This document shows positions 1,268 through 17,567 of a DNA stretch of 26,253 nucleotides, in pieces. A program made the translations under genes and the position numbers. The notes under the pieces are model-generated. The model had not been told where the DNA came from, ran no database searches, and was given only the letters and a program-made list of their open reading frames with translations. Within the stretch, counting starts at the first letter, position 1, and every line of letters begins with the position of its first letter. Source of the stretch: a virus; IMG/VR virus record IMGVR_UViG_3300031472_000015, positions 80,574 through 106,826 of that record; one strand, 5' to 3'.

Positions 1268-4200
1268 GTGCTGACATTCAGCAAGGGGGTTGGACGCGCT
1301 CCCAGCGCCGCAAGGGCGATGGCCGAGTACCTCGCGGAAAGCACGGTCCCCGACGAGGCGATGGCGCTGGCCGACTACTACGTTCGCGGCATTGAGCGGG
1401 TGGAGGCCGAGGGGACGGCGGCGATCCCCCGAGCTGACATGGCGCCCGCGGTCGCCGCAGCATTGGGCTTGGACATGGGCCGGACAGCCAAGGTGTCCGA
1501 GGTGGCAAACCTGCTGCAAGGGCTGCGCGCGGACGGCGAGGCCATCGAGGGCCGACAGTCCTACAAGGTGGGGGCCGGGCAGGATCGGGTCAGCTACATC
1601 GACCTGACATTCTCCGCCCCCAAGTCGGTCAGCGTGGCGATGGCGTTGGCCCCGACAGAGGCCGAGCGACACATCATCGTCGGCGCGCACCGCGATGCCT
1701 GGATGGCCGGCATGGCGCACCTTGAGACGATCATCGCGCACGCCCGCAAAGGAGCGGCCGGCAGCAAGGGTAGCGTGCCGGGCAAGCTGGGATGGGTCAG
1801 CTTCGACCACTACACCGCCCGCCCCACGATCCAGGTCCCGCATACAGAGGACGACGGCACCAAAACGACGCTGATCCAGAGCGTGCGCAACCCGGCGGTG
1901 CCGGCGGACATGCAGCTCCACACGCACGTCACTGTCCCCAACGTCGTCTTTGCCGATGACGGCACGGTGGGCAGCATCGACACGTTGGCGATGCACGACC
2001 GGGTCCACGAGGTCGGCGCCTACTACCAGGCCCACCTGGCAACCAACTTGCGGGCGCAGGGCATCGACGTGGTGCTGGACGACCGGACGGAAGCGGCCCG
2101 GATGCCGGCAGTCCCGGAGGCTATTTCCGACCTGTTCAGCAAGCGGAGCCACGACGGCGAGGCGGCGGCGCGGGAGTTCGTGCAATCGCTTGGACGGGAT
2201 TGGGACTCGCTGCACCCGCGTGAGTTGGTCGGAATAATGCGCTACGGCACCCGGAGCGCGCGGCAGGGCAAGGAGACAGCGGCGGCGCCGGCCGAGGGAT
2301 CGAACGTCGCCGGCTGGCGGGCGCAGGCGGCGGCGGCGGGCTACACGCACCGGAGCGTCATCGACCCGGAAGCGAAGGCCCGGCTGCCGGCGACCGAGCA
2401 GGACCGGCTGCGGCGAGGCTACACGGCAGCACTGCCGCTGCTGGCGCGGCAGTTCGAGCGGCGGGCGACCATGTATGCCAGCGTCGCCCGGACGTCGGCA
2501 GCGCGCGGCTTGATCGCGTCCGGCGTGGAGTCTGCCGCCGACATCGACCGGATCACGGCGGCTATGCGCGAGCATGGGGTGCAGCACGACGGCAGCACCG
2601 TCCCCTTGATGTGGGCCAGCATGCCCAGCGAGGGCGAAGGGGAAGGCCGGCGCCCGAAGGTCAAGATCACCACCACCCTGCATGTCGCTCAGGAGCGGGA
2701 GGCGATGGCGCTGGCGGAAACCGCGGCGGCTGACCGCAGCGGGGCGCTATCTCCTGGACAGATCGACCGCGCAGTACGGGACGTGTCCGAGCGCGATGGC
2801 CTGGACTTTACCGGTGCCCATGGGCTTGAGCAGCGGCGGGTGCTGGAAACGCTTGGCACGTCGGGGCGGCTGGCGGTCGCGGTCGGCGTGGCCGGGTCGG
2901 GAAAGTCCACGCTGCTGCGTCCGCTGGTTGCGGCATGGTCGGCACCTCCCGAACGGGAGGGCGACGAGCGCGCGATCTACGGGACGGCGTTGGCGACCCG
3001 GCAGGCCAACCAGCTTGCCGACGCCGGCATAGACCCCCGCAACACCCTGCCCATCGCCGGGCTGCTCGCACGGGCGCACAGCGGCGACCTGGTGCTGAAT
3101 GAGCGCAGCGTTATCGTGGTGGACGAGCTGGGGCAGGTGGGCACCGCCCAGGCCCTCGCCTTGCTGCGGCTACGGGCGGAACACGGCTTTTCCATCGTCG
3201 CCATCGGTGATGACCGGCAGGGCCAGGCGATTGATGCCGGCAATTCCATCGGCTTGATGCGAAAGGCGCTGGGGGCCAAGGCGGTGCCCGAACTTGAAGG
3301 ATCGGTGCGCCAGGCGCGGGAACGCGACCGCGAAACGTCCGCGATGTTCCGGCAAGGGGACGCGGCAGGCGGCATCGGGCGGCTGCAAGAGGATGGCCAT
3401 GCGGTGCTGATCCAGGGTGGGCATCGGCGGGCCGTCGAGGCAGTGGCGGACCTATGGCAGGCGCGGCACGCCGCCAACGCCGACCGTGCCGGCTACACGC
3501 TGACGGCCAGCGCGCCGACAAACGCCGACGCCCGGTCGATCGGCGCCGCCATCCGCGAGCGGCGGCGGGCAGCGGGGCAGGTAGGGCCTGATCAGGTGAC
3601 GCTGCAAGCGACCGACCAGAACGGGCAGCACTACGTCCTGCCGCTGGCGGAGGGCGACCGGGTGCGCCTGTTCGCTACCACCCGGGCCAACTTCGGCGGG
3701 CGCGGCGGCGTGATGGGAAACAACGGGTCAGTCGTGGAGGTGGAGCGCATCAAGGATGCCGGCGTCCAGCTCCGCACCTCGGCAGGCAAGTCCGGCTTCG
3801 TCGCCTGGGACACCTTGCGCGACCCTGCCAGCGGGCGGGTCAAGCTGACCTATGGCGACGTGCTGTCCATCGACGCCATCCAGGGGGCGACCAGCACGGA
3901 GCATATCAACGCCCTGCCCAGCGGCTCCCAGGCGGTGACGGGGTTCAAGGCATACGTCGCGCAGTCCCGGTCCCGCGAAACGACCTGGCTTGTGATCGCG
4001 GACGGGATGGAACGCGGGGAGATACTGGCCCGGCGTGCGCTGGGAGCTGACCAGGCCATCACGGAAGCTGAGGTGTGGGCCAACGTGGCGCGCAACCTGT
4101 CCCGCCAGCCCGAGAAGGGGCTTGCGACCGACCTGCTGGCGGATGCGGAGCGGACCTACACCGGCACCGTCCGGTCCCTGGCGACAGCCTTCCAGCCGCA

Positions 4201-5560
4201 CCAGCAGCGCCAGGCTGCGGGCGGGCCGGGGCCGGACCTGCGCTCCGCCTTCACCAGGCAGTGGGCTGAGCGCGACGTTGCCGCGGCGGCCGACACGGTA
4301 GGACGGGCCGCGGCGCAGGCTGCGGAGGCAACCCGGCTTTTGCCCGGTCCCAAGGCGCGGGAGGCCCGCAAGGCAGTCCAGGCCGCAAGGCGGTCCATGC
4401 GCGCGCCATCGCAGCGCCCGAAGCGCCAGAGGGCGCAGCAGCCGATGACCAGCACCCAGGCGCAAGCCGAGTTTGCGGACGCGCTGCACAGGGCGGGGCT
4501 GCGGCCCAAGGGGGCGCCCGTGATGGACGGCCAACGGCACCGGGTTCCGGTTGAGGGCGACAAGCGCGGGCGCATGTCCGGCAGCTACGTGGGCCACCTG
4601 GACGGCTTGCCCGCCGGCTCTATCCAGAACTTCAAGACCGGCGAGACAACCACTTGGCGGGCGTCGCGGGCCTATCAGGCGAGGTCGCCCGAGGATCAGG
4701 CCCGAGAGCGCGCACGCATCGCGGCCGACCAGGCGGCGCGGGAAGCATCCCGGCGGCAGGGAGAGGTGGCGGCGTCCAGCAAGGCGCAGGCGATGTGGGC
4801 GAAGGCCCGCCCGGCAGCAGCCTCGCATCCTTACCTTACGCGCAAGGACGTGGCGCCCCACGGTTTGCGGCAGGACCGGCGGGGAAGCTTGCTGGTGCCC
4901 ATGCGGGACGTTGAGGGCCAACTATGGGGCGTGCAGACGATCACGCCGGACGGGGGCAAGCTGTATATGGCGGGCGGCAAGAAGCAGGGCACGCACGCCC
5001 TGTTAGGCGAGCTGCGGCCGGGCCAGCCCTTGGTGATAGCAGAAGGCTTTGCGACCGCGGCGACGATGCGGGAAGTGACCGGCCTGGCAGTCGCCGTCGC
5101 GTTCGACAGCGGCAACTTGGTGGAAGTGGCCCGAGCCTACCGCGCGCGCGACCCGGTCCTGCCTATCGCGATCGCAGCCGACAACGACCATCACCTGCCG
5201 CGCAGGGAGGTGCCGTTGCCCAACGTGGGGGAGGTCAAGGCCGCCGCGGCGGCGCAGGAGGTCGGCGGAGTGGTTCTGCAGCCTGCGTTCGCGCCCACCG
5301 ACGTCGGGACGGATTGGAACGACTACGCGGCGCAGCACGGCAAGGCCGCGGCGCGGCAACTGGTGCAGGTCGAGCTAAGCAAGCATGGGTTCGAGTTGCC
5401 GGCCACGGTGGCGAAGCAGGCCACGACCGCGCCCGCCGTCACGCAGGCCATGCGCGACGCAGCGCGGCAACGGGCCGGGCAGGCGGCGCAAACCCCGGAT
5501 CAAGCAGCCCGAGAAGCTGCCCGCCGCGCCCAGCAGCGTCCGGTAGGGCCGAGGCTATGA
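1268..5560 (+). CDS. MOBF (TrwC/TraI-type) relaxase-SF1 helicase fused to a C-terminal TraC-like TOPRIM primase
   Basis: Relaxase motifs: Y21, DYY(36-38), DLTFSAPKSVS, FDHYTARP, HUH motif DMQLHTH, FSKR. Helicase motifs: GVAGSGKST, VVDELGQV, IGDDRQ, QGAT, YVAQSRSR. Primase motifs from about aa 1060: DGQRHRVPVEGD, HPYLTRK, LLVPMRD, IAEGFATA, VAFDSGNL, IAADND, TDWND. Confidence 0.95.
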   Translation: MLTFSKGVGRAPSAARAMAEYLAESTVPDEAMALADYYVRGIERVEAEGTAAIPRADMAPAVAAALGLDMGRTAKVSEVANLLQGLRADGEAIEGRQSYKVGAGQDRVSYIDLTFSAPKSVSVAMALAPTEAERHIIVGAHRDAWMAGMAHLETIIAHARKGAAGSKGSVPGKLGWVSFDHYTARPTIQVPHTEDDGTKTTLIQSVRNPAVPADMQLHTHVTVPNVVFADDGTVGSIDTLAMHDRVHEVGAYYQAHLATNLRAQGIDVVLDDRTEAARMPAVPEAISDLFSKRSHDGEAAAREFVQSLGRDWDSLHPRELVGIMRYGTRSARQGKETAAAPAEGSNVAGWRAQAAAAGYTHRSVIDPEAKARLPATEQDRLRRGYTAALPLLARQFERRATMYASVARTSAARGLIASGVESAADIDRITAAMREHGVQHDGSTVPLMWASMPSEGEGEGRRPKVKITTTLHVAQEREAMALAETAAADRSGALSPGQIDRAVRDVSERDGLDFTGAHGLEQRRVLETLGTSGRLAVAVGVAGSGKSTLLRPLVAAWSAPPEREGDERAIYGTALATRQANQLADAGIDPRNTLPIAGLLARAHSGDLVLNERSVIVVDELGQVGTAQALALLRLRAEHGFSIVAIGDDRQGQAIDAGNSIGLMRKALGAKAVPELEGSVRQARERDRETSAMFRQGDAAGGIGRLQEDGHAVLIQGGHRRAVEAVADLWQARHAANADRAGYTLTASAPTNADARSIGAAIRERRRAAGQVGPDQVTLQATDQNGQHYVLPLAEGDRVRLFATTRANFGGRGGVMGNNGSVVEVERIKDAGVQLRTSAGKSGFVAWDTLRDPASGRVKLTYGDVLSIDAIQGATSTEHINALPSGSQAVTGFKAYVAQSRSRETTWLVIADGMERGEILARRALGADQAITEAEVWANVARNLSRQPEKGLATDLLADAERTYTGTVRSLATAFQPHQQRQAAGGPGPDLRSAFTRQWAERDVAAAADTVGRAAAQAAEATRLLPGPKAREARKAVQAARRSMRAPSQRPKRQRAQQPMTSTQAQAEFADALHRAGLRPKGAPVMDGQRHRVPVEGDKRGRMSGSYVGHLDGLPAGSIQNFKTGETTTWRASRAYQARSPEDQARERARIAADQAAREASRRQGEVAASSKAQAMWAKARPAAASHPYLTRKDVAPHGLRQDRRGSLLVPMRDVEGQLWGVQTITPDGGKLYMAGGKKQGTHALLGELRPGQPLVIAEGFATAATMREVTGLAVAVAFDSGNLVEVARAYRARDPVLPIAIAADNDHHLPRREVPLPNVGEVKAAAAAQEVGGVVLQPAFAPTDVGTDWNDYAAQHGKAAARQLVQVELSKHGFELPATVAKQATTAPAVTQAMRDAARQRAGQAAQTPDQAAREAARRAQQRPVGPRL

Positions 5561-5945
5561 AGCGGGCATACTCCACTGGATCGGTAGGCTGCATACGCAC
5601 GCAAAGGTTTTAGGCGCCATCCAACAAAAGATCGGCAGACTGACCTGAGATGGCTTCTAGAACTTATTCCAGTAGAAGCATATTGAAAGACCGGTTTAGT
5701 TGGCACAGATTAGAGTAGACTTAATTTGTAGTGTTCAACTTGTTTGATATAGTCTTGTATCCGACCTTAATAAGCATTGCATCAACATCAACAGTGTTCT
5801 CATATACCGCAACAGATTTCTCCACACCTGCTATCACTAACATTGGCTGATGGGTCAGTATGACAGAGCGATTGGCCCAGGATTGACCCAGGGTATCCGG
5901 GATAGTAAGACACCTCAGCATCATATTAAGACCTGGAGGACCGGC

Positions 5946-6266
5946 TTGGCTCAGCTCGACTTCAAGAACCTGCTCAATCTGGATGCGGCGTTCACACCAA
6001 GGAATGAGGCTGATTGGAACTTTTTGCGAGCCGCTTCGCAAAACCTATTCAAGCCTAGAACACCAATTGAAGATGACAAGCTTTTTCAAGGTCGTCTAAA
6101 GCAAGTGAGCGATGTCCTAGATGTTATCTATGAAGATGGAGGCCATGCCGTCATTTTCGGAGAGCGTGGTGTGGGAAAAACCTCTCTGACTAATATCCTT
6201 GAGAAGAAAGTCATACCCCTAATAACTACCTATTTTTATCATGTGTGTGGGGCGAGTAGGAGGTGA
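5946..6266 (+). pseudogene. Truncated AAA+/STAND-like ATPase (N-terminus and Walker A only)
   Basis: GGAGGA at 5935-5940 is followed by TTG at 5946. The protein contains F-K-P-x-x-P-I...LFQGRLKQV...HAVIFGERGVGKTSL, typical of the start of ORC/CDC6-like AAA+ ATPases. It stops about 28 codons after Walker A with no Walker B. The DNA is AT-richer than the flanks. Confidence 0.65.
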
Positions 6267-6420
6267 GATGATCGGCATTCACCCGAAGCGATTGACCATC
6301 TTTCTTAGTATCGATACGAAAGAATAGGATTGCAGGCATGACATTCCTCCCAAAACGCCCTGGAACAGGCAGTCGGCATCCTATCCAACTCTGAATTAGA
6401 ACCCAACCAGGCGTCAGTCA

Positions 6421-6873
6421 TCATGACGCAGCTTCTTCCAACGCTGGCACTTTATTATCACTGGTGTCCATAGTGTCCACCTCCACCTGTGCGCCATCAC
6501 CGCAACTGTCAGCAGCGTGCGTCACCGGCCAACAGACCTTGCGATCATCTTCCGCCGCAGGTGACGGTGCGCGCCGCGTGCAATAGCCACTGGCAGCCCA
6601 CCACTCGACTGGCAACCCCTTGCGATAGTCCGGCCTGACCGGCTGCCCGTCCGGCTGGTGCCAGTGGATGCAGGACAAGCAGGCGACCACGCCCGGTCCC
6701 GTTCCGTCCCCGATGGCCGCGCCGTCACCGCATCGGTCGCCAGGCCGCACCTTGGGCCAGTGCACCAACTCGAACTCGTCCTGCCCGGGTGATGGCGCGT
6801 GCCGCCGGCACATGCCCCCAGGCGGGTAATAAACACAGAGGCGACACGACGGCGCGAGGGTCGGCTTATCCAT
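6421..6873 (-). CDS. Cys-rich protein with a tandemly duplicated Cys4 metal-binding-like module
   Basis: Two copies of CxxC...C(R/T)RxAPSP...WPxx...DxCGDGA. The ATG at 6873 overlaps the upstream stop (TGATG). Confidence 0.75.
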   Translation of the reverse strand: MDKPTLAPSCRLCVYYPPGGMCRRHAPSPGQDEFELVHWPKVRPGDRCGDGAAIGDGTGPGVVACLSCIHWHQPDGQPVRPDYRKGLPVEWWAASGYCTRRAPSPAAEDDRKVCWPVTHAADSCGDGAQVEVDTMDTSDNKVPALEEAAS

Positions 6874-7097
6874 CACAACGTGGACCGCGACGGCCGCGCT
6901 GCCTCCGATTGACGACGGGATGCGTCGGCAGCGGACGACGGGGTTGCGGTGGCCCGCGCCCGCGAGGCGTCGCGTTGCGCCTGGGTTATGGTGCTGGACG
7001 CTGGCGAGACAGGGGCCGCTGGACCTTGGGCCGGCGCAGGAGCCGGCGCGGGGGTCACAGGAGCATCCCGGCGGGGAGCGGTGGGGCGATCCGACAT
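6873..7097 (-). CDS. 74-aa Pro/Ala/Arg-rich protein homologous to the relaxase-primase C-terminal tail
   Basis: ATG at 7097 with RBS AGGGGA. The stop is coupled to the next gene. It contains TQAQRDASRARA, matching the relaxase TQAMRDAARQRA. Confidence 0.65.
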   Translation of the reverse strand: MSDRPTAPRRDAPVTPAPAPAPAQGPAAPVSPASSTITQAQRDASRARATATPSSAADASRRQSEAARPSRSTL

Positions 7098-7111
7098 GCT
7101 GGTTTCCCCTC

Positions 7112-7384
7112 TTACTGCCGCGAGCACTGCGGCGAGTTGGTCATACCAAGCGCCATGACGCTGCCGCCGTTGATCGTGCAGGCGAAGGTCCCGCGTGGGG
7201 TGTTGGCCGTGTAATAGGTGTTGGTCGCGCCGTCATAACGCCGACCCGAGATGGTGACGGCGGAGATCGGTTGGTTGAGCGCCATGGCGGTGTTCTCCCT
7301 GATCCTGTCGTCCGACAGCAGCTTATCCGCGCAGCCGCCGAGGGCCAGCGACGCGGCGAGGAAGGCGAGGGTTGTCCGGTTCAT
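7112..7384 (-). CDS. Small lipoprotein (90 aa), candidate exclusion protein
   Basis: ATG at 7384 with GGAG RBS. Signal peptide MNRTTLAFLAASLALGG-C has a lipobox, and there are two further Cys in the mature part. Confidence 0.8.
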   Translation of the reverse strand: MNRTTLAFLAASLALGGCADKLLSDDRIRENTAMALNQPISAVTISGRRYDGATNTYYTANTPRGTFACTINGGSVMALGMTNSPQCSRQ

Positions 7385-7422
7385 GGTGTGTTGCTCCGAA
7401 AGGGTGAGGACGTGTCTGATTG

Positions 7423-7632
7423 TCAGCCTGTGCGGGCAGTGCCGTCCCAGGGGTCGGCTGCAACGGGGCATACGTTTGCGGCCAGGCGCGTCGCGTCGGC
7501 GTGACTGCTTCTTCGCAGCATGTCGCGAGCTGCCGGGGTCGCCGTAACTGCAAGCCCGAAGCGGCGAGCAACGGCCAGAAAATCCCCAATCTTCGCGAGC
7601 TGCTCAACAGCCCATTCCTCATTTGTGTCCAT
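7423..7632 (-). CDS. Hypothetical protein (69 aa)
   Basis: ATG at 7632 with strong RBS GGGAGG; sequence MDTNEEWAVEQLAKIGDFLAVARRFG...; fills the gap directly downstream of virD4. Confidence 0.55.
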   Translation of the reverse strand: MDTNEEWAVEQLAKIGDFLAVARRFGLAVTATPAARDMLRRSSHADATRLAANVCPVAADPWDGTARTG

Positions 7633-7658
7633 CAGACTGCCTCCCAAAAAGTTGCCAG

Positions 7659-10538
7659 CTACTCGGCAGCGGAGCGGTAGCGGTCCGCCTCGACCCGAGC
7701 TTTCAGCTCCGGGCGTCGGAAGAAGATCGGGCGACCGCACCGGAGCGGGGCGGCGCCGCGGCGGAAGATGATCGCCTCGTCGGCGCGCATCCGGGTCCGC
7801 ACCTCGTCGGGCTTGATCAGTTCGCGGGCCTGCTCAGACAGGCCCTCGTTCATGCCCCTGTTCCGGGACCCGGCCACGCCGCCGCTTTGCGTGCTGCTCG
7901 ATTGCCCTTGGGTGCGGGCGAGCACGGTGTACTTGCCGGCGGTCCGAGAAACTTCCTCCGCCGTGCCGTCATCGTCCACCGCGGCGAACAGGCGCCAGGA
8001 GCACGAGTTGAACCAGGAGCCTTTGCCTTCCTTGCCCCAGGTATCCGTGAGCTGGCCCAAGGACTGCCACATGCAGAGCAGGGTGATGCCATACTTGCGC
8101 CCAGCGTCCCGCGCATCCTCCAGCACTTTGAGCTTGCCGAGGAAGTTCACCTCGTCCAGCAGGAACAGCACCCGCCCGGATAACCTACCGTCTGCCCGAT
8201 AGGCCGCGCCCAGCAGCGAGCCGACGATCACGCGCGCCACCTCCGGCGTCGCGCGCAGCGACTCCATCGGCACCTGGATGAACACCGTCAGCTTGCCGCC
8301 GGCCAGCTCACCCGTCCCGAACGAGCCATCGGACAGCATGTCGGCATACACCTTGATCGACAGCCATTGCGTGTCGGCGTTGGCGTTTGAGTAGATGCCC
8401 GAGAAGGTTTCGTGGAACACGTCCACCAACGTTCCGGCCAAGTCCCGGGCAAGCGGGCTTTCGGAGCCAACCTGGATGTCCGCCAGCAGGCCCTTCATCT
8501 TCTTCTCAGGGGTGCGGACTCGTGCGCGCAGCTCACGCAGCGTCTTTTGGCTGGCCGGCACCTTGCTGTCCCACAGCAGATCGGCCAGCAGGCACGTCAG
8601 CAACTCCTTGCCGCGCACCTTGAAGATTGAGTTTTCGCCGGCCTGGTTGGGCGGTGTCTCCCCCGCCACGCGCTCGATCACCGCTTGCACGTAGGTTTCG
8701 GCCAGGGGGTCGCGCGGGTCTATCCAGTCCAGCACGTTCACGCCGCCCAGGCCGGGGCCGATCATGACGACCTTGTGCCCCATGTCCCGGCGCATGGGCG
8801 CAGTCATCGGCCCGACCTGGCATGAGGGGTCCAGCACCACCGCAGATCCCGTCCAGTAGGCCAGGGTGGGGATCGCGACCGCCGTCGTATTGTGAGTGAC
8901 GACGTAGTTGTCTGTAACATACAGTCCATCGTCGGATGTCAGTGATATACAAATGGCCGGCTTCATTCCCACGGATTCGATTGAGACGATATTTAAGCGA
9001 TGCCGCATGATTTTCGGTTGGCAACTTTCGACTTTACGCGGGACCGAGAACAGCGACGCAATGTCTGGATGCACGATACTGACACGCCAGGACGGGCGAC
9101 CATCCTTTATGATGCCTAGGTAGGTGTAGTTGGTCTGCTGTGGGCGAATGGTTGCTATGGCACCGAGCGACCATGCCAGTTCCTGCACGTCACGCGCGAG
9201 CCTTTCGCTCGTGGTTACGAAAATGGCATAGGTTGAGCGCCCGCCTTGAACCGCCCCATCGGTATCAAGCAATCCCTGTAGCAGGGCCAGTCTTTGCGCT
9301 GCACTGCCAATTTTGTACATATCCGGCACGAATTTCTCATGCGACCGGCAGCCCCATAGGTTTAGACTTTCTAGCGACAGACGGAGCGGCGAGTGCTTGC
9401 GCAGCACCTTCATCGCTAGGGCATGATCATACGTCCCCGGATTGTTTCTGGCTCTGTAATCTGGAAGGTCGTACAGCATCCGATCAAGAATGGGCTGATC
9501 GGCGGTAGAGAGCATGACGGTGCTTCCAGACGAGAAATTCCCATCACCCAGCAGCGTTCCAAGGGCGTATGGCGGAATGGGCAGGGTTTGCTGCGGCATC
9601 TCTACCGCAAACGGCTCAACCAACGGGACAGCCAGCGCCTTCCATGCGCTCCGCTTGTTGTGGAGGCGGTCGCGTATCTTGGATAGGGAGTAAACGCACC
9701 ATCCGACGCTGCGCTTACCCCTGACGCCGCACTCTCCAGAGCTTTCCCACGTTCTCGTCCACACCTTCCACAGGTGATCGTCACAGCACTCAACCGTGCG
9801 TCCATCTTTGAACGTTACGCGCCATATCTCCTTCACCCCTTGGGGATGCACACCCGCAATACACACTGGATGGCCTCCCGGCGATTGCACCAAGTCCCTG
9901 ACACGGAGATCACCGATCTGACGAAATCCAGTAGGCGTAAGCACTTTGGCGTCCAGTGGTTGCGCCTTGTAGCCGCCGCTGCCGGCGAACACGGCGCCAT
10001 GCGTCGCGTCGGAGGTGCAGGGGTCGATCAGCAAGGGCGCCTTGCCGCCCTGGCCCCACGTCTTGGGATCGTCGGGGTTCAGGCGGACGGCAGCCACGCT
10101 GTCCTGATCGACGCGGTAAGCCTCTCCAACCACGACACCGCCATAGCCAGGTGCCGGGCCGGGGAATAGCTCACGGGCAGCCTTGATGGTCAGCCAGTCT
10201 GCGTTGCCGTGCGTGTCCGACAAGGCCCGTTGCGGTTTGGGCGGCGTCTCACCCTGGCGCGCGGCGCGCAGTGGGTGGCGGGAGGGACGGAACAGCATGA
10301 TGGCGGCCGGCAAGGCGGCGAGGATGCCGGCGCCCGCGGCGCAGATCGGCAGCCACTTAGCGACTGCCGGCAACCCGCTGTAGTCGCGCCAGTAGAAGTA
10401 GGCGGAAACCGGCGCGACCCAGGGGCTCAGGCTGTTCCAGGTGTGCAGGGCGGTGCCGAGTGCGAATGAGGTCAACGGCAGCCACAGGGCCGCGCCGATG
10501 CCGAGGGCGGCGGTGGTCGCCAGCAACCGGCGCTTCAT
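7659..10538 (-). CDS. virD4: Type IV coupling protein (Ti TraG/VirD4 type), intein-containing precursor: 959 aa, about 600 aa after splicing
   Basis: ATG at 10538 overlaps the upstream stop (ATGA). Two N-terminal hydrophobic segments, HGNADW, VVVGEAYRVD, Walker A AGSGGYK|TT split by the intein, VVLDPS, NVLDWID, Walker B LFLLDEV, GRKYGITL..WQSLGQL, RELIKPDEV. Confidence 0.93.
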   Translation of the reverse strand: MKRRLLATTAALGIGAALWLPLTSFALGTALHTWNSLSPWVAPVSAYFYWRDYSGLPAVAKWLPICAAGAGILAALPAAIMLFRPSRHPLRAARQGETPPKPQRALSDTHGNADWLTIKAARELFPGPAPGYGGVVVGEAYRVDQDSVAAVRLNPDDPKTWGQGGKAPLLIDPCTSDATHGAVFAGSGGYKAQPLDAKVLTPTGFRQIGDLRVRDLVQSPGGHPVCIAGVHPQGVKEIWRVTFKDGRTVECCDDHLWKVWTRTWESSGECGVRGKRSVGWCVYSLSKIRDRLHNKRSAWKALAVPLVEPFAVEMPQQTLPIPPYALGTLLGDGNFSSGSTVMLSTADQPILDRMLYDLPDYRARNNPGTYDHALAMKVLRKHSPLRLSLESLNLWGCRSHEKFVPDMYKIGSAAQRLALLQGLLDTDGAVQGGRSTYAIFVTTSERLARDVQELAWSLGAIATIRPQQTNYTYLGIIKDGRPSWRVSIVHPDIASLFSVPRKVESCQPKIMRHRLNIVSIESVGMKPAICISLTSDDGLYVTDNYVVTHNTTAVAIPTLAYWTGSAVVLDPSCQVGPMTAPMRRDMGHKVVMIGPGLGGVNVLDWIDPRDPLAETYVQAVIERVAGETPPNQAGENSIFKVRGKELLTCLLADLLWDSKVPASQKTLRELRARVRTPEKKMKGLLADIQVGSESPLARDLAGTLVDVFHETFSGIYSNANADTQWLSIKVYADMLSDGSFGTGELAGGKLTVFIQVPMESLRATPEVARVIVGSLLGAAYRADGRLSGRVLFLLDEVNFLGKLKVLEDARDAGRKYGITLLCMWQSLGQLTDTWGKEGKGSWFNSCSWRLFAAVDDDGTAEEVSRTAGKYTVLARTQGQSSSTQSGGVAGSRNRGMNEGLSEQARELIKPDEVRTRMRADEAIIFRRGAAPLRCGRPIFFRRPELKARVEADRYRSAAE
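8889..9965 (-). mobile_element. Class 3 intein (359 aa) with LAGLIDADG homing endonuclease, inserted in VirD4 Walker A
   Basis: Block A AQPLDAKVLTPTG (Ala1), block B VECCDDHLW, blocks C/D/E/H LGTLLGDG, KFVP, LLQGLLDTDG, SERLARDVQELAWSLG, block F PAICISL, block G YVVTHN|T. Removing it restores GSGGYK-TTAV. GC is visibly lower than in the exteins. Confidence 0.95.
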
Positions 10539-10702
10539 CGCCGGGCTCCGGGGAGGTTGGCCAAGACCCTTGAGATGCGGACGAGCGCCACCGCGGGAGC
10601 GGCCAGCCACAGCGCGAAGGCGGCGGCCATCAGGGCAGGGAGGAGGCATCCGGCATAGGCAAAAGCGAGGACGAGGAACACGACGACATAGGAGGGGCGC
10701 AT
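10535..10702 (-). CDS. Small hydrophobic membrane protein (55 aa) between virB11 and virD4
   Basis: ATG at 10702, 4 nt after the virB11 stop, with RBS AAGGA. Sequence MRPSYVVVFLVLAFAYAGCLLPALMAAAFALWLAAPAVALVR. Its stop overlaps the virD4 start (ATGA). Confidence 0.6.
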   Translation of the reverse strand: MRPSYVVVFLVLAFAYAGCLLPALMAAAFALWLAAPAVALVRISRVLANLPGARR

Positions 10703-10706
10703 AGGG

Positions 10707-11756
10707 CTATTCCTTTGCCATCGGCAGGACCTTGGCGTCGCCATACCTGTCCCTGGCCTCTGGGTCGTACAGAACCTGCTCGATATACCGGTGGCCGGTT
10801 TCAGGGTCGCGCACGCAGTGAACCACCACGTCGATGGACCGCTGGAGCGAGGCGCGCACGTCGGCGTCGTCCAGGTGCCGGCCGGACGGGTGCGACTTGA
10901 TCAGCTTGCGGATGCGGTCGCGGGCGTCGTCGGCGGTATCGGCATGGACTGTCGTCATGCCCCAATGGCCGCTGTCCAGCACGTTCATGTAGGCCAGGGC
11001 CGCCTCGTCGCGCAGCTCCTGGTTGAGCATCCCGTCCATGCCCATGCGTAGCGCAGCGGCGACCAGGTCCTCTGCATTGTGCTTGGACACGGACTGGCCA
11101 CCCTTGGAGTAGAGCAGATGGACGACGTTGTGCAGCGGCAGGCCGATCAGCTCCTGCAGGTCCTCGATGGTGACCAAGCGCATGAGCTTGGGCACCCGAT
11201 GGATGAACGCGCGCATGTTGTGGGTCTTGCCTGTCCCCATCTTACCCGACCAGACGATGTTGAGGCCGGACACGATGGCCAGCGACAAGAACGCCTCCCA
11301 CTGCTGGCCGCGGTGCAGATCAGCCAGCTCCGCCTCCCGGTTGCGCGGGCGACGGCTGCCGGATGCCCGCGCGAAGACCCCGGAGGCCGCCAAGTCGTCT
11401 GGGGTGCCAGCCTGCGCCTTGGGCCGGCGGATGGAGATGGCGATGGTCCCTTCGGGTACGGCAGGCGGACGGGCGATCTGCACGCGCTGCCCATCAGGGA
11501 GCCGGGTGCTGACCAAGGGCACGTCTTCGGCGATGTCCTGCCGGGTCAAGGCGGCGGCATTGATGGCGATGTCGTCCAGGTCATTGAACGAGAAGGGCAG
11601 GGTGATGCGCTCGACGCCCCGCCCGCGGGTGACGTAGGCGTTGTCCTCGCCGGGTCCGTTGATGTGCAGGTCGGTCATGTTCGCGTCATCGAGCAAGTGC
11701 TGCGCCGGCTGTAGCAGCCAGCGCAGGTTGGTCGCGGCGGTGATTGCCATGTCCAT
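10707..11756 (-). CDS. virB11: VirB11 traffic ATPase
   Basis: DLHINGPG, LPDGQRVQIARPPA, ISIRRP, Walker A GKMGTGKT, Asp box TIEDLQEL, ALRM..D....ELRD, His box SGHWGMTTVHA; position after virB10. Confidence 0.93.
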   Translation of the reverse strand: MDMAITAATNLRWLLQPAQHLLDDANMTDLHINGPGEDNAYVTRGRGVERITLPFSFNDLDDIAINAAALTRQDIAEDVPLVSTRLPDGQRVQIARPPAVPEGTIAISIRRPKAQAGTPDDLAASGVFARASGSRRPRNREAELADLHRGQQWEAFLSLAIVSGLNIVWSGKMGTGKTHNMRAFIHRVPKLMRLVTIEDLQELIGLPLHNVVHLLYSKGGQSVSKHNAEDLVAAALRMGMDGMLNQELRDEAALAYMNVLDSGHWGMTTVHADTADDARDRIRKLIKSHPSGRHLDDADVRASLQRSIDVVVHCVRDPETGHRYIEQVLYDPEARDRYGDAKVLPMAKE

Positions 11757-11759
11757 CGG

Positions 11760-12866
11760 TCAGTGCTTCCTGGGGCGGTTTTCATAGAAGCGGAACAGGT
11801 CGATGTACTTGTTGACCTTGACGATCAGCGGCTGGCCGGGCCCGCGGTAGAGGGTCGGCGGGATGTTGAGGTCGTGCCCAAACGCCTGGGACGCCAGCGA
11901 GGTCGCCTGACCGTTCAGGCCGCCGAGGTTGAGGTTGGTGTTGCCGTTGCCGCGTTGCGCCAGCCCGGTGGCGACGTTGCCCGATGTGTCGATCAGGCTG
12001 ACCAGCAGCGCGGCCCTGATCTTCTTCCACAGGTGGTCGTTGACATCGCCGGGCACGCCGGGAAGGCCAAGCTCGTCGGCAGCCGGGGCGTCCAGCGGAA
12101 TGGCAAGCAGGTCCGGCGCAGGTGTTAGGGCATCGGTCCAGACAAGGAACGCCCGCTCCTCGCCGGTGCCAAGCCCGCGCTCGATGGTGCCGTTCACCTG
12201 GGTTCCGCGAGGCAGCAGGATCGTGTTCCCGTCCATGCTCCACACGTTGTCATCCACCGTGCATTCGACGGGGCCGGGCAGGGCGGTGCTGATCGCGCCG
12301 TCAGGTGTGCAGCCGAAGGTCTGGCCCTTCTTGATCGTGTATTGGACGTGGAAGCGCTGGGGGACCGGCGCCGTATCGGCAAAGTGGGTGGTCTGCATCC
12401 GCTGCGCATATTCGCTGCCGCCCGGCGCTGCCACGTCGGGATCAGCCCGTGTCGGCGCTGCCTGCGCCTGCGCACGGGTTGCCGCCCGCTGCGCCGCCTC
12501 CTGCATCCCGGCGGTGTCCTCCCAGAAGCCCATGACGCGCAGGGGTGGGGTAACTGCTGCCGTGGTTGGGGGCGGGACGGTGAAGGCTGCTGCGGCCGGC
12601 GGCGGCACGATTGGATGTGCCGCGGCAGGCTCGGGCGGCGGTGCCACGCGGAACAACTGCTCGGGCATCTGCTGGCCGATTGACCACGCGGCACGGGATT
12701 GGGCGGAAGGCGTCTCTTCCCGGGGAGCCCTGGGCCACAAGACCCAGGTCAGGCCGCCGGCTGCGGCCAAGGCGCACGCGATGGCGCCCGCTGCCCGAAC
12801 GCTGCCGGGCAGGTAGGTGCGTCCCCGGGCGACAGGAGAGGCACCGGGCGACGCGAGGCCGCTCAC
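11760..12866 (-). CDS. virB10: VirB10/TrbI core-complex protein
   Basis: GTG at 12866 overlaps the virB9 stop (GTGA). TM segment, Pro-rich linker, then IKKGQTFGC...ISTALPGPVEC...VWSMDGNTILLPRGT...DELGLPGVPGDVNDH...NIPPTLY. Confidence 0.92.
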   Translation of the reverse strand: MSGLASPGASPVARGRTYLPGSVRAAGAIACALAAAGGLTWVLWPRAPREETPSAQSRAAWSIGQQMPEQLFRVAPPPEPAAAHPIVPPPAAAAFTVPPPTTAAVTPPLRVMGFWEDTAGMQEAAQRAATRAQAQAAPTRADPDVAAPGGSEYAQRMQTTHFADTAPVPQRFHVQYTIKKGQTFGCTPDGAISTALPGPVECTVDDNVWSMDGNTILLPRGTQVNGTIERGLGTGEERAFLVWTDALTPAPDLLAIPLDAPAADELGLPGVPGDVNDHLWKKIRAALLVSLIDTSGNVATGLAQRGNGNTNLNLGGLNGQATSLASQAFGHDLNIPPTLYRGPGQPLIVKVNKYIDLFRFYENRPRKH

Positions 12867-13765
12867 GGTGCGCGCACGCCGCGGACGACATCGGGCGAGC
12901 TGGTGCCGGTGCCGCCGCCCGGCTCCGTGCCGATGGGGTCGAAGCGGTTGTTGCGGAGCGCGCACACCTTGCCGCCGCGGCGCAGGCGCAGCTCCCGGTG
13001 GACGCTGGGCAGGACGACCTGCAAGCCGTTCGGCATGGTCGCGTTGACCGTGGAGACGATGGCCTCCTTGTTGTCCTGGTTGATGATGTAAACCTCCGGC
13101 AGCACCGCATGGGGCGGGAAGACCATGGTGGTCCGGTTGCCGTCGTCGGTGACGAACGAAGGGGCGAGCAGCGGACAGCCCACCGGATCGCGCTTGGAGT
13201 AGTCCTCGTTCTGGGTGGGCAGGGAGGCGGCGAAGCGGACCTTGACCGCTTGGTTGGCCGCCGCGGCTGCGGCCTGCTCCCGCCTGGCCCGCCACGCTGC
13301 GACCGCTTCCGGCGAGGGGGTTGCCTTGTAGGCGACCTGGACGGTCATGTAGGCCGCCCGATCATCGGTGCTGGCGACGTTGCCTTCCCTGGTGTGCAGC
13401 TCGAACGAGTAGTGGCGGTCGCGGCCATCGGCGGTCGCGGTGCGGACGAACAGCATCGACGGCTCCATCTGGTGCATCGGCTGGAGGATCAGCACGTTGC
13501 CCGACGAGCGCGCGAGCCAGTCCTTCGCCTCCTTCGGATCGGTGAATACCAAGGCCCCGGCGATGGTCAGCGGCTTTTCCCCGGCCTCCAGGATCAGCTC
13601 CAAAGGCGACAACCCGGTGCTGGTCAGCCGCGTGACTTGCTGGGGGTCATAAGCGACGCTGCGGACCCTGGGGTCCTTGGGGCCTGGCGCGGGATCAACG
13701 ACGGCCAGCGCAGGGACCGGGGCCAGCAAGGCAGCGGCGAGAAGCAGCGGGCGCAGGTGGGTCAT
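12863..13765 (-). CDS. virB9: VirB9/TrbG core-complex protein
   Basis: Signal peptide, DPRVRSVAYDPQQV, GNVLILQP, RHYSFEL, P..VTDDGNRT, LPEVY, LRLRRGGKVCALRN. Confidence 0.9.
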   Translation of the reverse strand: MTHLRPLLLAAALLAPVPALAVVDPAPGPKDPRVRSVAYDPQQVTRLTSTGLSPLELILEAGEKPLTIAGALVFTDPKEAKDWLARSSGNVLILQPMHQMEPSMLFVRTATADGRDRHYSFELHTREGNVASTDDRAAYMTVQVAYKATPSPEAVAAWRARREQAAAAAANQAVKVRFAASLPTQNEDYSKRDPVGCPLLAPSFVTDDGNRTTMVFPPHAVLPEVYIINQDNKEAIVSTVNATMPNGLQVVLPSVHRELRLRRGGKVCALRNNRFDPIGTEPGGGTGTSSPDVVRGVRAP

Positions 13766-14496
13766 CGGGGGGCTTCCGGATCGAGGTCTGCTTGATAGTG
13801 GGAAAAGGCGATGCCCAGCGGGTCGTAAGCCTGCTGGATGTCGGGGGGGATGACGTCCGCCGCGGCCAGCCAGGTGATGCTCGCGGTCTTGCGCAGCGTC
13901 CGGGGCGGCAGGCCGGGGGCGGTAATCTTGAGCACGAAGGCGGCAGACACGGCGTAGGGCGTTGCGGGATCGGTGCGGACCTGGATGCCGACCACATCGA
14001 CCACGGCAGCGTTCAGTCCGTCGCCGTAGAGCGCGGCGGGGTTGTCCGGGTTCTTGCGGTCAAGCATCACGGCCTGGTAGCGGGCCATCTCAGCCGACGT
14101 GCTCATGGCCGACACCCGGCGGTAGTTGCCGTTCACGCTCTCCCAGACGTAGTTCTCCCGGTCGCGCACATACTGGATGACCGTGTGCCGGAACACTGCG
14201 TCATGCAGGCTGCGGGGCAGGTCATCGCGGACCTGGGGTGCATCAAAGGTGCCGTCGTCGTGGACGATGGAGACGTAAACTCGGTCATGCACGGTCGGCC
14301 GGTTCCACATGATGGCCAAGCACGCGGCGGCGACGGTGGTCATCATGCCGGCGACGATCCAGCCCCCGCCGATGGTGACGAGGCGGCGCAGGCGGCGTTC
14401 CCGAACCAGGCCATCGACAACGGCGTAGCTCTGCTTCGCCTCCGCCAGGGCATCACCGCGCAGGGCGAAGCCCGGCTCGCTGGCGATCTGGTTCAT
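13762..14496 (-). CDS. virB8: VirB8
   Basis: ATG at 14496 (TGATG overlap with virB7). Single TM, then VIQYVRDRENY...YRRVSAMS...NP...YG and a C-terminal DPLGIAFSHYQAD equivalent to NPLGF.V..Y. Confidence 0.9.
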   Translation of the reverse strand: MNQIASEPGFALRGDALAEAKQSYAVVDGLVRERRLRRLVTIGGGWIVAGMMTTVAAACLAIMWNRPTVHDRVYVSIVHDDGTFDAPQVRDDLPRSLHDAVFRHTVIQYVRDRENYVWESVNGNYRRVSAMSTSAEMARYQAVMLDRKNPDNPAALYGDGLNAAVVDVVGIQVRTDPATPYAVSAAFVLKITAPGLPPRTLRKTASITWLAAADVIPPDIQQAYDPLGIAFSHYQADLDPEAPR

Positions 14497-14675
14497 CAGC
14501 CATGCTCCCGGCTTGCGCTGATCATGCGGCCTGGCGCGGGGCTGAGCGGACTGGTGGCCAAGCTGGGGCGGTTGGCGGGCACCCACTCGCCGGTCGGCTC
14601 GGGCACGGTCGAGTACTCGTTGGAGGAGCAGCCAGCCAAGGCGAGGATGACGGCCAGGGAGAACAGCGGACGCAT
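14496..14675 (-). CDS. virB7: VirB7 lipoprotein (59 aa)
   Basis: MRPLFSLAVILALAG-CSS lipobox and P..G.W.P.N motif; lies between virB6 and virB8. Confidence 0.85.
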   Translation of the reverse strand: MRPLFSLAVILALAGCSSNEYSTVPEPTGEWVPANRPSLATSPLSPAPGRMISASREHG

Positions 14676-14680
14676 AGGGA

Positions 14681-15727
14681 TCAGCTCCGTGTGGAGTGCG
14701 TGATGGCAGGCGGCGGTGCGGGCGGCAGCGCGGCGGGGGCTTGCGAGCCAAGCTCCGGCCTGGCCAGGGACAGGCTGAGCGGCGGGGACGGCGGGCCAGG
14801 CGCCGGGATGGACGGGGCGGACCAGCCGCCGCCGCCGCGACCGAGAAAGGACAGGGCGTAGAGGGACGGCCCTGACAGCGCGATGCCGGTGCCGATGGAG
14901 TAGGCGAGGGGCTGGACGTTCCACATCACGTAGGCGCCGGCCAGGAACCATACGGCGATGGCGAGCATGACCTGGATCGCTTCGGCAAAGACGGCGGTGT
15001 TGGTCGAGGCGGTGATGATCGCGTTGGTCGCCTGGACCATGAACCACTGGTTGCCCAGCATGACCATCTGCAAGATCACGAAACCGATGACCTGCAGGAT
15101 GACCAGTGCGATCATCTTGCCGACCGCACGCTCGAAGATCGGCCGCGTCGCATCGAAGATGGCGCACCCGATGATGGCCGGGAACACGCAGACGATGGCG
15201 GCCAGGGTCATGCGCGCGACGATGTAGACCAGGGCAAGGAACCCAAGGCCGAGGCCGCCGACGAAGCCTGTCACGATGCCGGAGATGCCGGAGATCACGC
15301 CGGTGACGCTGAACCCGATTTGCATCCAGGCGGTGCCGATGATGACCCACATCTGGTTCCAGACGTTGTCGAAGATCGCGGCGGTGCTGGCGACGCTGTT
15401 GGCGGTCGGGCCGGTGCTGCTGGAGATGGCAGCCGCAAGGGCATTGGGAATGCCGGTGAAGAATACGTCCCGGACCCAATAGTTGAACGTGGCCAGGTTG
15501 GTCGAAAGGTAAAGGACCAAGCCGACCCGCACGAGCTGGGGGACGAAATTGTTCAGCGGCGAAGCGTCGCCGTTGGCCAACTTGACGCCTTGCATCGTGT
15601 AGTAGAGCGCGGCGCACAGGGCGAGCGGGGTGGACACATAGTTGACCATCGCGCTGACGATCCCATCCATGCCGGCGGACATCGCACCGTCGAAGCGGGT
15701 CACGAAGGTGCCGATCGGCGCGAACAT
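14681..15727 (-). CDS. virB6: VirB6/TrbL polytopic membrane protein
   Basis: ATG at 15727 (TGATG overlap). Multiple TM segments, FNYWVRDVFFTGIP, PAIIGCAIFDATRPIFERAV, Pro-rich C-tail. Confidence 0.9.
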   Translation of the reverse strand: MFAPIGTFVTRFDGAMSAGMDGIVSAMVNYVSTPLALCAALYYTMQGVKLANGDASPLNNFVPQLVRVGLVLYLSTNLATFNYWVRDVFFTGIPNALAAAISSSTGPTANSVASTAAIFDNVWNQMWVIIGTAWMQIGFSVTGVISGISGIVTGFVGGLGLGFLALVYIVARMTLAAIVCVFPAIIGCAIFDATRPIFERAVGKMIALVILQVIGFVILQMVMLGNQWFMVQATNAIITASTNTAVFAEAIQVMLAIAVWFLAGAYVMWNVQPLAYSIGTGIALSGPSLYALSFLGRGGGGWSAPSIPAPGPPSPPLSLSLARPELGSQAPAALPPAPPPAITHSTRS

Positions 15728-16098
15728 CAGCCGGCCCCGACCCGGCCGTTGCTCATGAGGGACGGCACGCACCGGGCCAGAGGATCGAACGGCCTGATCT
15801 TGTCGGCGGCGATCCAGCCTGGCCGGTTGTCGAGAGTGACGACCTCGGCGTAGCCGTTGACGACATGGCGGGGCGTCTTGGCGAACACGATGTTGGACGC
15901 GGTGACCAGCGTCGCCGCATCAGGGCGCGGATCAGCCAGGATCGGCACGCCCGGCCCGTGGCGATCAGCCAGTTGTGCCTCGGGCACATTCAGGACGGTG
16001 CAGGCCACCCCATCAAGAGGATGGACGACCTGCGGCTCTGCAGCCATGGCGGATACGGCGCACAGCACGGAGGCGGCGGCCAGGGTGATCCTGGTCAT
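15727..16098 (-). CDS. Secreted SH3b-like protein (123 aa) in the virB5-virB6 (eex) slot
   Basis: ATG at 16098 overlaps the virB5 stop (ATGA). Signal peptide ending SAMA-AE. SH3b-like pattern PILADPRPDA...VNGYAEV....RPGWIAADKIRPF, with a Cys pair. It is the C-terminal part of ORF-track 15727..17664. Confidence 0.75.
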   Translation of the reverse strand: MTRITLAAASVLCAVSAMAAEPQVVHPLDGVACTVLNVPEAQLADRHGPGVPILADPRPDAATLVTASNIVFAKTPRHVVNGYAEVVTLDNRPGWIAADKIRPFDPLARCVPSLMSNGRVGAG

Positions 16099-17567
16099 GT
16101 GTTCATCCCGAGCAGCACGGGTTGGCTGGCTGCGCTGGCACCGATCTTGTTGGTGATCGATGTCCGCCACTGGCCGACGGTCATGTTCGCCGAGATGCCG
16201 TTGGCGACGAGGGTGGAGCTGGACATGCCGGCCAGCGCGGTGGTCATGAGCTGGTTGCTGGGCGCGCTGGCCAGGCTTCCGGCATAGCCGGGTCCATAGT
16301 TGTAGTAGCCGCGGACATCGAGGACCGTGGGGTTGGCGATGCCGGCGGCCTGCAGGGCGGTGGCGCCGTCCTTGAGGTAGGCCGCGGCGGCGATGGACTG
16401 GCTTGCAGGGTCGTTCTTGGTGGTGATCTGGGACGCCAGGTCCGGATTGTTCTTTTGGACCTCGCTCACGGTCTGGGCGTAGGTGCCGTTCGACATCTGG
16501 AACGCGCCGCTGATGGTGCCGGTGCCACCGGGGTTGGCGGTGCAGTTGGACTCCAGCGAGCATGTTGCCGCCAGCGCGGTTGGATTGACGCCAAGGGCGG
16601 CGGCATTGCGGGCCGCCGCCTGGCCCCAGGGCTGGCTGGTCATCTTCGACAGCGTGGAGCCGTCGTCGGCGATCCCGCTGCCGCCTGTCGCGCTGACCAG
16701 CGTGCCGGTGGTCCCGCCGGCAACCATATCGGGGGACGCTGCCGGTGCGACGTTGCAACTGCTGGTGGCGGCGCTGCTGGCCAGGATGACGGCGCCGCCG
16801 GCCGCCGAGCTTGCGCTGCTGCCCGCCTGCCGCACCAACGCCTCGGCCGAGCAGCGCCACGCCTGCAGCTCGCGCGCGGCGTCCGTCGTCGCCTGGGCGT
16901 GCTGCATGATGCCGACCGCGGCGAGCTGGTTGCCTTGGGTCTGCGCCATCGCTTGCTCGCCGGCAAAGCGGGCGGATGCGTCGGTCGATGCCTTGATGTC
17001 GGTGGTGTTGCTCAGGCTGGAGCGCAGGCTGGTCAGCTCGGTCAGCCGCTTGCCGCTGCTGTCCAGCGCGGCCTGGGCGATCACCTTCTGGTAGGCGGCG
17101 GACGACGCGGTCTGGTTGATCGCCGCGGCCCGGAAGTCCGAGCCGGTCGGCGCATAGAACATATCGCTCCGCATCACGTTCTGCGCCAAGGAGGCAGTCT
17201 GCGTCATGCTGGATGACAAAGTGCCTGTCGCGCTCGCGAGGCCGCTGAGCGCCTCCCCCAGCCCCGCCGTGTCGGCGCCGAAGGGGTTGGTCAGGCCCAT
17301 TGAGCTGAGTTGCGGGCCAAGCTCGGAAACGGCGGCCAGGTTGCCATGACTGACCGCGGCAAGCGTATCGCGCAGGTGGACGATCTGAGTGATCTGGTTG
17401 TCGATGATCGTCATCTGGTTGGCGATCTTGACCGCATCCTTGGCCACCGTCTGGCCGAACTGGCTCAAGGTGGCCGCCTCGGTCGCCGGGTCCGAGACGA
17501 TCCATTGCGCGCGGGCGCCGCCGGCGTGCAGGCACAGGGCGGTGCAGGCGGCGAGGGTCTTCTTCAT
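16095..17567 (-). CDS. virB5: VirB5-like pilus-tip protein fused to a C-terminal lytic transglycosylase (SLT/lysozyme-like) domain
   Basis: Signal peptide ARA-QWIVSDP, helical NQMTIIDNQITQI, and RLTELTSLRSSLSNTTDIKASTDASARFAGEQA (VirB5 signature) over about the first 250 aa. After a G/S/T/A linker come LGVNPTALAATCSLES (Glu339), GAFQM, NDPASQSIAAAAYL and YYNYGPG. Confidence 0.85.
   Translation of the reverse strand: MKKTLAACTALCLHAGGARAQWIVSDPATEAATLSQFGQTVAKDAVKIANQMTIIDNQITQIVHLRDTLAAVSHGNLAAVSELGPQLSSMGLTNPFGADTAGLGEALSGLASATGTLSSSMTQTASLAQNVMRSDMFYAPTGSDFRAAAINQTASSAAYQKVIAQAALDSSGKRLTELTSLRSSLSNTTDIKASTDASARFAGEQAMAQTQGNQLAAVGIMQHAQATTDAARELQAWRCSAEALVRQAGSSASSAAGGAVILASSAATSSCNVAPAASPDMVAGGTTGTLVSATGGSGIADDGSTLSKMTSQPWGQAAARNAAALGVNPTALAATCSLESNCTANPGGTGTISGAFQMSNGTYAQTVSEVQKNNPDLASQITTKNDPASQSIAAAAYLKDGATALQAAGIANPTVLDVRGYYNYGPGYAGSLASAPSNQLMTTALAGMSSSTLVANGISANMTVGQWRTSITNKIGASAASQPVLLGMNT

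Follow-up and report, generated by a model that had tools for sequence, protein, structure and literature searches.

Substrates of the Agrobacterium VirB/D4 system and the MobA protein are recognised through Arg-rich C-terminal stretches of 19-50 residues (PMC10025392). VirF was reported to need its C-terminal 37, and later its C-terminal 19, residues, while VirE2 and VirE3 need 50 and MobA needs 48, and C-terminal signals are also carried by alphaproteobacterial relaxases (PMC10025392). In the tfs3 ICE of Helicobacter pylori, CtkA, PZ39 and Fic have a common basic C-terminal cluster, KRRR, which has been read as a type IV secretion system (T4SS) signal (PMC5536186). As a concept, Arg-rich C-terminal tags shared between proteins are known already. 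A common C-terminus is also found among the products of single genes with internal starts, namely the long and short proteins of MobA/RepB' (RSF1010), Sog (ColIb-P9) and TraC (RP4).

The stretch of DNA analysed here (the window) is the final 26 kb of a 106.8-kb (106,826-bp) IMG/VR record, in which a 74-aa ORF ends in a module that is homologous to the end of a relaxase-primase. The module resembles the signals of Agrobacterium VirF, VirE2, VirE3, VirD5 and VirD2 and of RSF1010 MobA (Vergunst et al. 2005, reviewed in PMC10025392) in lying at the extreme C-terminus, in its length and net positive charge, and in being hydrophilic and dominated by Arg. As in those systems, it is present on a relaxase-primase and on a non-relaxase protein, in the setting of an alphaproteobacterial VirB/D4-type T4SS. 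It differs from the Agrobacterium consensus in adding a sharp Q-A-x-R-D-x-x-R motif, in being limited to two proteins and in having one carrier that is mostly tail. The BID domain with positive tail of Bartonella Beps and alphaproteobacterial relaxases (PMC10025392, PMC6509941) is comparable in its C-terminal role in recruitment and in its presence on relaxases and other proteins, but BID is a folded helical domain whereas the module consists of about 40 residues of low hydrophobicity. Pfam matched no BID domain in the relaxase and nothing in the small ORF, in which about 35 Pro/Ala-rich residues precede the tail. A BID domain is much larger than a module of about 40 residues. The likeness to the tfs3 ICE is that otherwise unrelated proteins of one conjugative element have the same tail; in tfs3, however, this is four residues on three cargo proteins, whereas here it is a homologous 38-aa module on a relaxase and one small protein. 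Like MobA/RepB', Sog and TraC, the locus encodes a large conjugative DNA-processing protein and a smaller protein with the same C-terminal end but, in contrast to these nested primase products, the short form is encoded here by a diverged gene of its own, which lies on the other strand and shows no Toprim similarity. In the literature searched, the 38-aa module, its nearly cargo-less carrier and the coupling of that carrier to an unannotated Cys-rich family were undescribed.

Conjugation genes of the window

The window contains a VirB/D4-type operon on the minus strand, on which a plus-strand relaxase gene converges. The main features are as follows.

1268-5560, plus strand: MOBF relaxase (TrwC) fused to an SF1 helicase (AAA_30) and a Toprim_3 primase, 1430 aa, assigned by Pfam
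6421-6873, minus strand: Cys-rich protein, 150 aa, with two internal repeats of the form C-x2-C...C...C; its ATG overlaps the stop of the small ORF
6873-7097, minus strand: small ORF, 74 aa plus stop; ATG at 7097, stop TGA at 6875-6873
7098-7111, minus strand: 14-nt spacer with the Shine-Dalgarno sequence GAGGGG
7112-7384, minus strand: small lipoprotein gene with lipobox L-G-G-C, between virD4 and the small ORF
7659-10649, minus strand: VirD4/TraG-type coupling protein, 996 aa, with an intein-like insert; candidate reader of the tail
10707-11756, minus strand: VirB11, member of the VirB/D4-type operon
11760-13295, minus strand: VirB10, member of the same operon
12863-13765, minus strand: VirB9, member of the same operon
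13762-14751, minus strand: VirB8, member of the same operon
14681-15772, minus strand: VirB6, member of the same operon
17564-20104, minus strand: VirB4, member of the same operon

Pfam matches in the relaxase were to TrwC, AAA_30, AAA_19 and Toprim_3, with the tail located after the Toprim domain. The VirD4 protein has a LAGLIDADG_3 match at residues 452-513. Its orthologues in three related loci (L003, L005 and L076) are 605-636 aa in length (636 aa in L003) and lack this insert, which indicates that VirD4 of the window carries an intein-like insertion of about 360 aa. On the 3' side of virD4 the order of genes, all on the minus strand, is lipoprotein gene, 74-aa ORF and Cys-rich gene. In the window, L003 and L005 the lipoprotein gene has virD4 on one side and the small ORF on the other; it is missing from L076. 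Searches of Pfam, NCBIfam and PHROGs yielded no credible family for the lipoprotein, a PHROG match to Cor superinfection exclusion being non-significant (E 0.3); it is a candidate entry-exclusion or VirB7-like protein.

Positions 5560-6420, which separate the stop codon of the relaxase from the Cys-rich gene, have a GC content of 47-50%, as compared with about 70% in the flanking DNA. This low-GC stretch holds a 138-aa ORF (5850-6266) with weak matches to the N-terminal part of AAA_16/STAND NTPases, and the content at the same position differs in L003. The stretch looks like a truncated foreign insertion.

The 74-aa ORF as a gene

The position of the ORF and the peptides and codons quoted for it in a sequence-only reading of the window agree with the sequence. 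That reading had also given the ORF its own ribosome-binding site and a coupled stop, and both are present: GAGGGG lies 8 nt 5' of the ATG, immediately 3' of the TAA of the lipoprotein gene, and the stop TGA has one A in common with the ATG of the Cys-rich gene. The peptide consists of a short conserved N-terminus, M-S-D-R-P, a Pro/Ala-rich linker and a C-terminal module of 37 aa. Its composition is dominated by 19 Ala, 12 Pro, 11 Ser, 10 Arg and 7 Thr. With no more than 5 hydrophobic residues among the 74, it lacks a hydrophobic core. The small protein is almost certainly disordered.

The GC content by codon position is 0.71/0.81/0.71, which is atypical and is expected for codons of Ala, Pro, Ser, Thr and Arg; composition alone could therefore not decide whether the ORF is coding. 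Among 15 distinct orthologues, codon positions 1, 2 and 3 were variable in 37, 32 and 57 of 65 columns, respectively, and pairwise dN/dS values were 0.2-0.5 for the N-terminal part and the tail alike. For comparison, dN/dS was 0.24 for the relaxase and 0.11-0.17 for the Cys-rich gene. The protein-level selection that had been suggested from several third-position differences between the two tails is borne out by these values. SD-like GGAG or GAGG sequences are located 5' of the ATG of the orthologues in two different upstream contexts. As judged from sequence comparison, the small ORF is a real gene under purifying selection.

A direct search of 5.8 billion proteins yielded no homologues of the 74-aa ORF, and the family was instead reached through the neighbouring genes. 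There was no match to plasmids for positions 6400-7700 by blastn with distant settings, and no credible family in Pfam, NCBIfam or PHROGs for the small ORF and its longer relatives. A PHROG match to 'head scaffolding' (E 0.011) fell on the Pro/Ala-rich part and was taken as compositional.

Homology of the two tails

The two tail modules of the window are as follows.

6876-6986, minus strand: tail module of the small ORF, 37 aa, starting T-Q-A-Q-R-D-A-S-R; 7 Arg, net charge +4
5441-5557, plus strand: tail module at the extreme C-terminus of the relaxase, 39 aa, starting T-Q-A-M-R-D-A-A-R; 8 Arg, net charge +5

Both begin with [ST]-Q-A-x-R-D-x-x-R, have many Arg and a net positive charge, and contain almost no hydrophobic residues. 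The identity of nine of the first 12 residues that had been noted was confirmed, and identity across the tail is about 38%. With BLASTP and composition adjustment, the small ORF matched the relaxase within the window at E=1.5. In the comparison with shuffled sequences that had been named as a possible refutation, Smith-Waterman scores gave p~4e-4 for the match of tail to tail and p~0.02 for that of the small ORF to the whole relaxase. Taken from the window alone, the similarity would be rated as moderately significant.

A search of all six frames of the 106,826-bp record for a relaxed form of the motif, [STA]-Q-A-x-R-[DE]-x-x-R, gave two occurrences and no more: those of the small ORF and the relaxase, each 37-39 residues before a stop. 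A profile HMM was built from 19 distinct relaxase tails alone and run on 7,522 six-frame ORFs, comprising all loci and the remainder of the record. The highest ranks were taken by 21 relaxases and the next by 16 small ORFs at E values of 6.5e-5 to 0.017, with the ORF of the window at 0.017 and noise starting from 0.33. The motif keeps its Q, A, R, D and R in all of 16 diverse tails of both classes; the net charge of these tails is +2 to +7 with 4-12 Arg and 0-1 Lys, their hydrophobic fraction is at most 0.15 and their length is 37-47 residues. The module starts 37-47 residues before the stop in every carrier. In one locus (L028) the small-ORF tail falls between the two classes, in support of a homology that extends over the entire module. 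The rarity of the motif in the record, the presence of both classes in relatives and the HMM ranking settle the question raised by the window alone: the last 37 residues of the small ORF are homologous to the last 39 residues of the relaxase. The description of the ORF as a stand-alone homologue of the relaxase tail was thus found to be genuine, and the homologue to be conserved, with the motif recovered from both classes in relatives.

Distribution of the module among relatives

Relatives of the relaxase were taken from Acetobacteraceae metagenome-assembled genomes (MAGs), and further loci were fetched via other genes. L009-L012 were rejected as relatives, being unrelated Toprim proteins without the tail. 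L003 contains an orthologue of the small ORF in syntenic position (57% identity, E 8e-17), and orthologues were present in 15 other loci. In L005, L006 and L008, a 96-aa ORF that terminates in the tail module lies directly 3' of the relaxase on the same strand and is followed by the Cys-rich gene. With the Cys-rich protein as the sole bait, 27 metagenome loci were fetched. The ORF immediately 5' of the Cys-rich gene is closed by the module in 22 of these 27 loci, and likewise in the MAG loci; three of the remaining five are cut by a contig end. In these ORFs the module starts 37-39 residues before the stop, or 46 residues in L031 and L032. A convergent relaxase end is present in 12 of the metagenome loci, and in all 12 it has the module 39-47 residues before the stop.

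The tail carrier and Cys-rich gene form a pair that follows the relaxase on the same strand in L005, L006 and L008, and that ends the virD4 operon and converges on the relaxase in the window, L003 and most metagenome loci. The pair is inverted between these element types (L005:14303-15087 as against 6421-7097 of the window). In L031 and L032 the second carrier is absent and the relaxase is directly 5' of the Cys-rich gene, with stop and start overlapping. The relaxase tail of these two loci (L031:1-953 and L032:1477-3905) is longer, at 46 residues, and has a second A-R-D-A-A-R-Q-like piece inside it. These relaxases could be chimeras formed by recombination between two tail repeats; recombination between the direct tail repeats of an L005-like arrangement would explain them. 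Genome G246 (L076:9480-12013) has intact copies of virD4, the small ORF and the Cys-rich gene, but the 19.5 kb fetched for this locus yielded no homologue of the relaxase, the only similarity nearby being a 45-aa fragment like the end of a relaxase tail.

The second carriers, which range from 63 to 212 aa and show no Toprim or primase similarity, have the following forms.

Window type: stubs of 63-74 aa, mostly starting M-S-D-R-P (M-S-D-S in L045)
Further forms: 81-85 aa
L005 and L008: 96 aa
L036-L039: about 105 aa or more, starting M-A-D-R-P
L013-L015: 200-212 aa

Their N-terminal bodies vary by lineage while the tail stays. The most diverged groups have both carriers, which indicates an old duplication of which both copies were maintained.

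A scan of the element and its relatives for other proteins ending in this way had been proposed, and a profile of relaxase tails did recover the small ORFs as described above, but no further class of protein emerged. A profile of 16 tails was run on the longer proteins of the 5.8-billion collection and exhaustively on 1.84 billion representatives. The only carriers detected were relaxases or their C-terminal fragments and the family encoded 5' of the Cys-rich gene, and a third class was found neither in the 106.8-kb record nor in any of the loci nor among the 1.84 billion proteins. In the exhaustive search, nine of ten matches end no more than two residues from the end of the protein; the tenth has the module and a different ending.

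The coupled Cys-rich protein

The coupling of the second carrier to the Cys-rich gene is a point absent from the sequence-only reading. The stop of the tail carrier overlaps the Cys-rich start, and the relatives retain this overlap in the form ATGA, GTGA or TTGA. The two halves of the Cys-rich protein are homologous and have four Cys per repeat; in 90 sequences C10, C13, C22, C48, C65, C68 and C98 are invariant and C124 is nearly so. No credible family was found in Pfam, NCBIfam or PHROGs for this protein, sequence profile searches of the PDB gave no match for either the Cys-rich family or the tail, and a scan of viral contigs for the Cys-rich family found nothing. The family comprises at least 129 clusters, all without annotation.

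An AF2 model of the protein had a pLDDT of 92 with a deep alignment and 40 with a shallow one. Foldseek returned nothing significant for the model, the best match (E 0.32) being the two-cluster gamma subunit of 4-hydroxyphenylacetate decarboxylase (4-HPAD). The best ten rows from VIA-align were all HiPIP or HiPIP-like Fe-S small subunits, with weak Z values of 2.6-3.8. The likeness of the Cys-rich protein to HiPIP and to the HiPIP-like [4Fe-4S] small subunits found in glycyl-radical enzymes (4-HPAD gamma, 2y8n_B; benzylsuccinate synthase beta/gamma) lies in the four Cys of each repeat, in the pattern C-x2-C...C...C, and in these ten best structural matches; the matches are, however, weak, and the protein has no sequence match to a solved structure. 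The best guess from the model is that it is a tandem HiPIP-like metal or iron-sulfur protein, probably with two [4Fe-4S] clusters.

The family was present in 19 of 401 sampled genomes from the family of G001, the Acetobacteraceae MAG holding L003. Distant members (35-40% identity) are not adjacent to a T4SS or relaxase and, in the genome contexts inspected, have no tail-bearing ORF on their 5' side. A tandem pair of such distant paralogues, which are chromosomal, lies directly 5' of cydA-cydB, encoding cytochrome bd oxidase, in three Acetobacteraceae genomes (L068:8482-11944, L069:8809-12226 and L071:9095-12501). This adjacency fits a redox or iron-sulfur role of the family.

The tail as a proposed recruitment tag

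In all probability the two proteins have in common a tag for docking or export. The reading favoured here, as a tentative one, is that the tail marks the relaxase for recognition by the VirB/D4-type machine via VirD4; it is favoured because the tails match the VirB/D4 signals of Agrobacterium and have a precedent in the tails of the H. pylori ICE. Known T4SS signals are matched in the extreme C-terminal location of the module and in its net positive Arg clusters within hydrophilic sequence, and the same reading is supported by the position of the small gene, which follows either virD4 or the relaxase where Mpf and Dtr genes meet. It is supported, too, by the conservation of the module in both carrier classes, by purifying selection on the small ORF at a level similar to that on the relaxase, and by the retention of the tail on differing N-terminal bodies. 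The small protein represents the minimal form of a family in which nothing but a C-terminal module of about 38 residues stays constant. According to this model, the module, with its invariant Q-A-x-R-D-x-x-R start and the 30 or so Arg-rich hydrophilic residues that follow, would act as a portable docking peptide, which VirD4 may read directly or via the Cys-rich protein from the overlapping downstream gene. The small protein, bearing hardly any cargo or none, would display a second copy of the tag and could be a co-substrate or a competitor that tunes recruitment of the relaxase. In assigning the T4SS as partner of the tail, and a role of this kind to the free tail, we infer from these likenesses. 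Several points count against the model. The mapped signals of TrwC- or TraI-type (MOBF) relaxases for their own T4SS are internal and not C-terminal (PMC10025392). An export tag of general use should sit on a wider set of cargo, yet the record, the loci and the 1.84 billion proteins searched yielded two carrier classes only, which weakens this form of the reading; a signal for VirD4 alone does not predict that the second carrier should invariably be coupled to the Cys-rich gene; and a cargo-poor substrate has no obvious use.

The Cys-rich protein is a rival docking partner because the second carrier is always translationally coupled to its gene. In this main rival reading, a serious one though less likely than the first, the tail docks on this HiPIP-like protein and not on VirD4, and both the small protein and the relaxase-primase are bound, perhaps with each repeat taking one tail. 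The relaxase-primase would in that case have the Cys-rich protein as an accessory or redox-sensing subunit, for which the small protein would serve as placeholder or chaperone. Such docking would suit a tail ORF that ends at the Cys-rich start in 22 of the 27 metagenome loci and in the MAG loci, an overlap that persists even when the start codon changes, and a relaxase that itself occupies the position before the Cys-rich gene in L031 and L032. The Cys-rich gene adjoins the relaxase 3' end in all arrangements, its product is built of two homologous halves, the fold matches are to glycyl-radical HiPIP-like small subunits, which are accessory and bound to a large partner, and the paralogues outside conjugative contexts are without an upstream tail ORF. 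The adjacency may, however, be historical, as recombination between direct tail repeats would yield the arrangement of L031 and L032 and keep the coupling, and a strictly terminal Arg-rich tail is more typical of secretion signals. The VirD4 and Cys-rich readings merge if the Cys-rich protein is an adaptor of VirD4, and there is a slight chance that the partners lie outside these readings altogether.

The other explanations have a far lower probability. The small ORF could be a leftover 3' end of the relaxase gene that serves as a leader for coupled translation of the Cys-rich gene, with a functionless peptide. The conserved stop/start overlap, the highly variable N-terminal body (a Pro/Ala-rich stub in the window type) and the absence of the small gene in L031 and L032 agree with a leader, but a functionless tail would not be expected to have a dN/dS of 0.2-0.5 instead of about 1, a Q, A, R, D and R invariant in 16 diverse tails, a module length fixed at 37-39 residues in the small carriers or both copies retained in at least six diverged lineages, and we consider this explanation improbable. 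The sequence-only reading had offered a relic of a once-separate primase gene, the body of which fused into the relaxase, in keeping with the position of the relaxase tail after the Toprim domain. This can largely be set aside: none of the second carriers has a primase-like body, they share an N-terminus (M-[SA]-D-R-P) and a genomic slot that are particular to them, and they are under purifying selection and kept in several diverged lineages, which makes such an origin very improbable. Chance likeness between Ala/Arg-rich low-complexity stretches would accord with the BLASTP E value of 1.5 and the p~0.02 of the small ORF against the whole relaxase; it is refuted, leaving a negligible probability, by the restriction of the motif to two occurrences in the record, the presence of both classes in independently fetched relatives and the selection of the small ORFs by HMM from 7,522 ORFs.

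Implications for conjugation

How coupling proteins choose relaxases and co-transferred proteins is poorly defined for most conjugation systems. The family described here provides a short recognition module whose sequence limits are clear and in which five residues are invariant, a natural protein with little besides that module, a conserved partner gene and several lineages that place the module on different protein bodies. With these four features the question becomes directly testable by simple fusions, deletions and binding assays. Should the tag be able to direct transfer on its own, VirB/D4-type systems would have a compact delivery tag. The Cys-rich proteins are in themselves an unstudied family of probable iron-sulfur proteins. 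A more speculative proposal, which we hold to be improbable, is that the small protein, as a free copy of the relaxase tag without cargo, and the co-translated tandem Fe-S protein gate access of the relaxase-primase to the coupling protein, such that the redox or oxygen state sensed by the clusters switches transfer. If true, this would be a new post-translational control of conjugation through tag mimicry.
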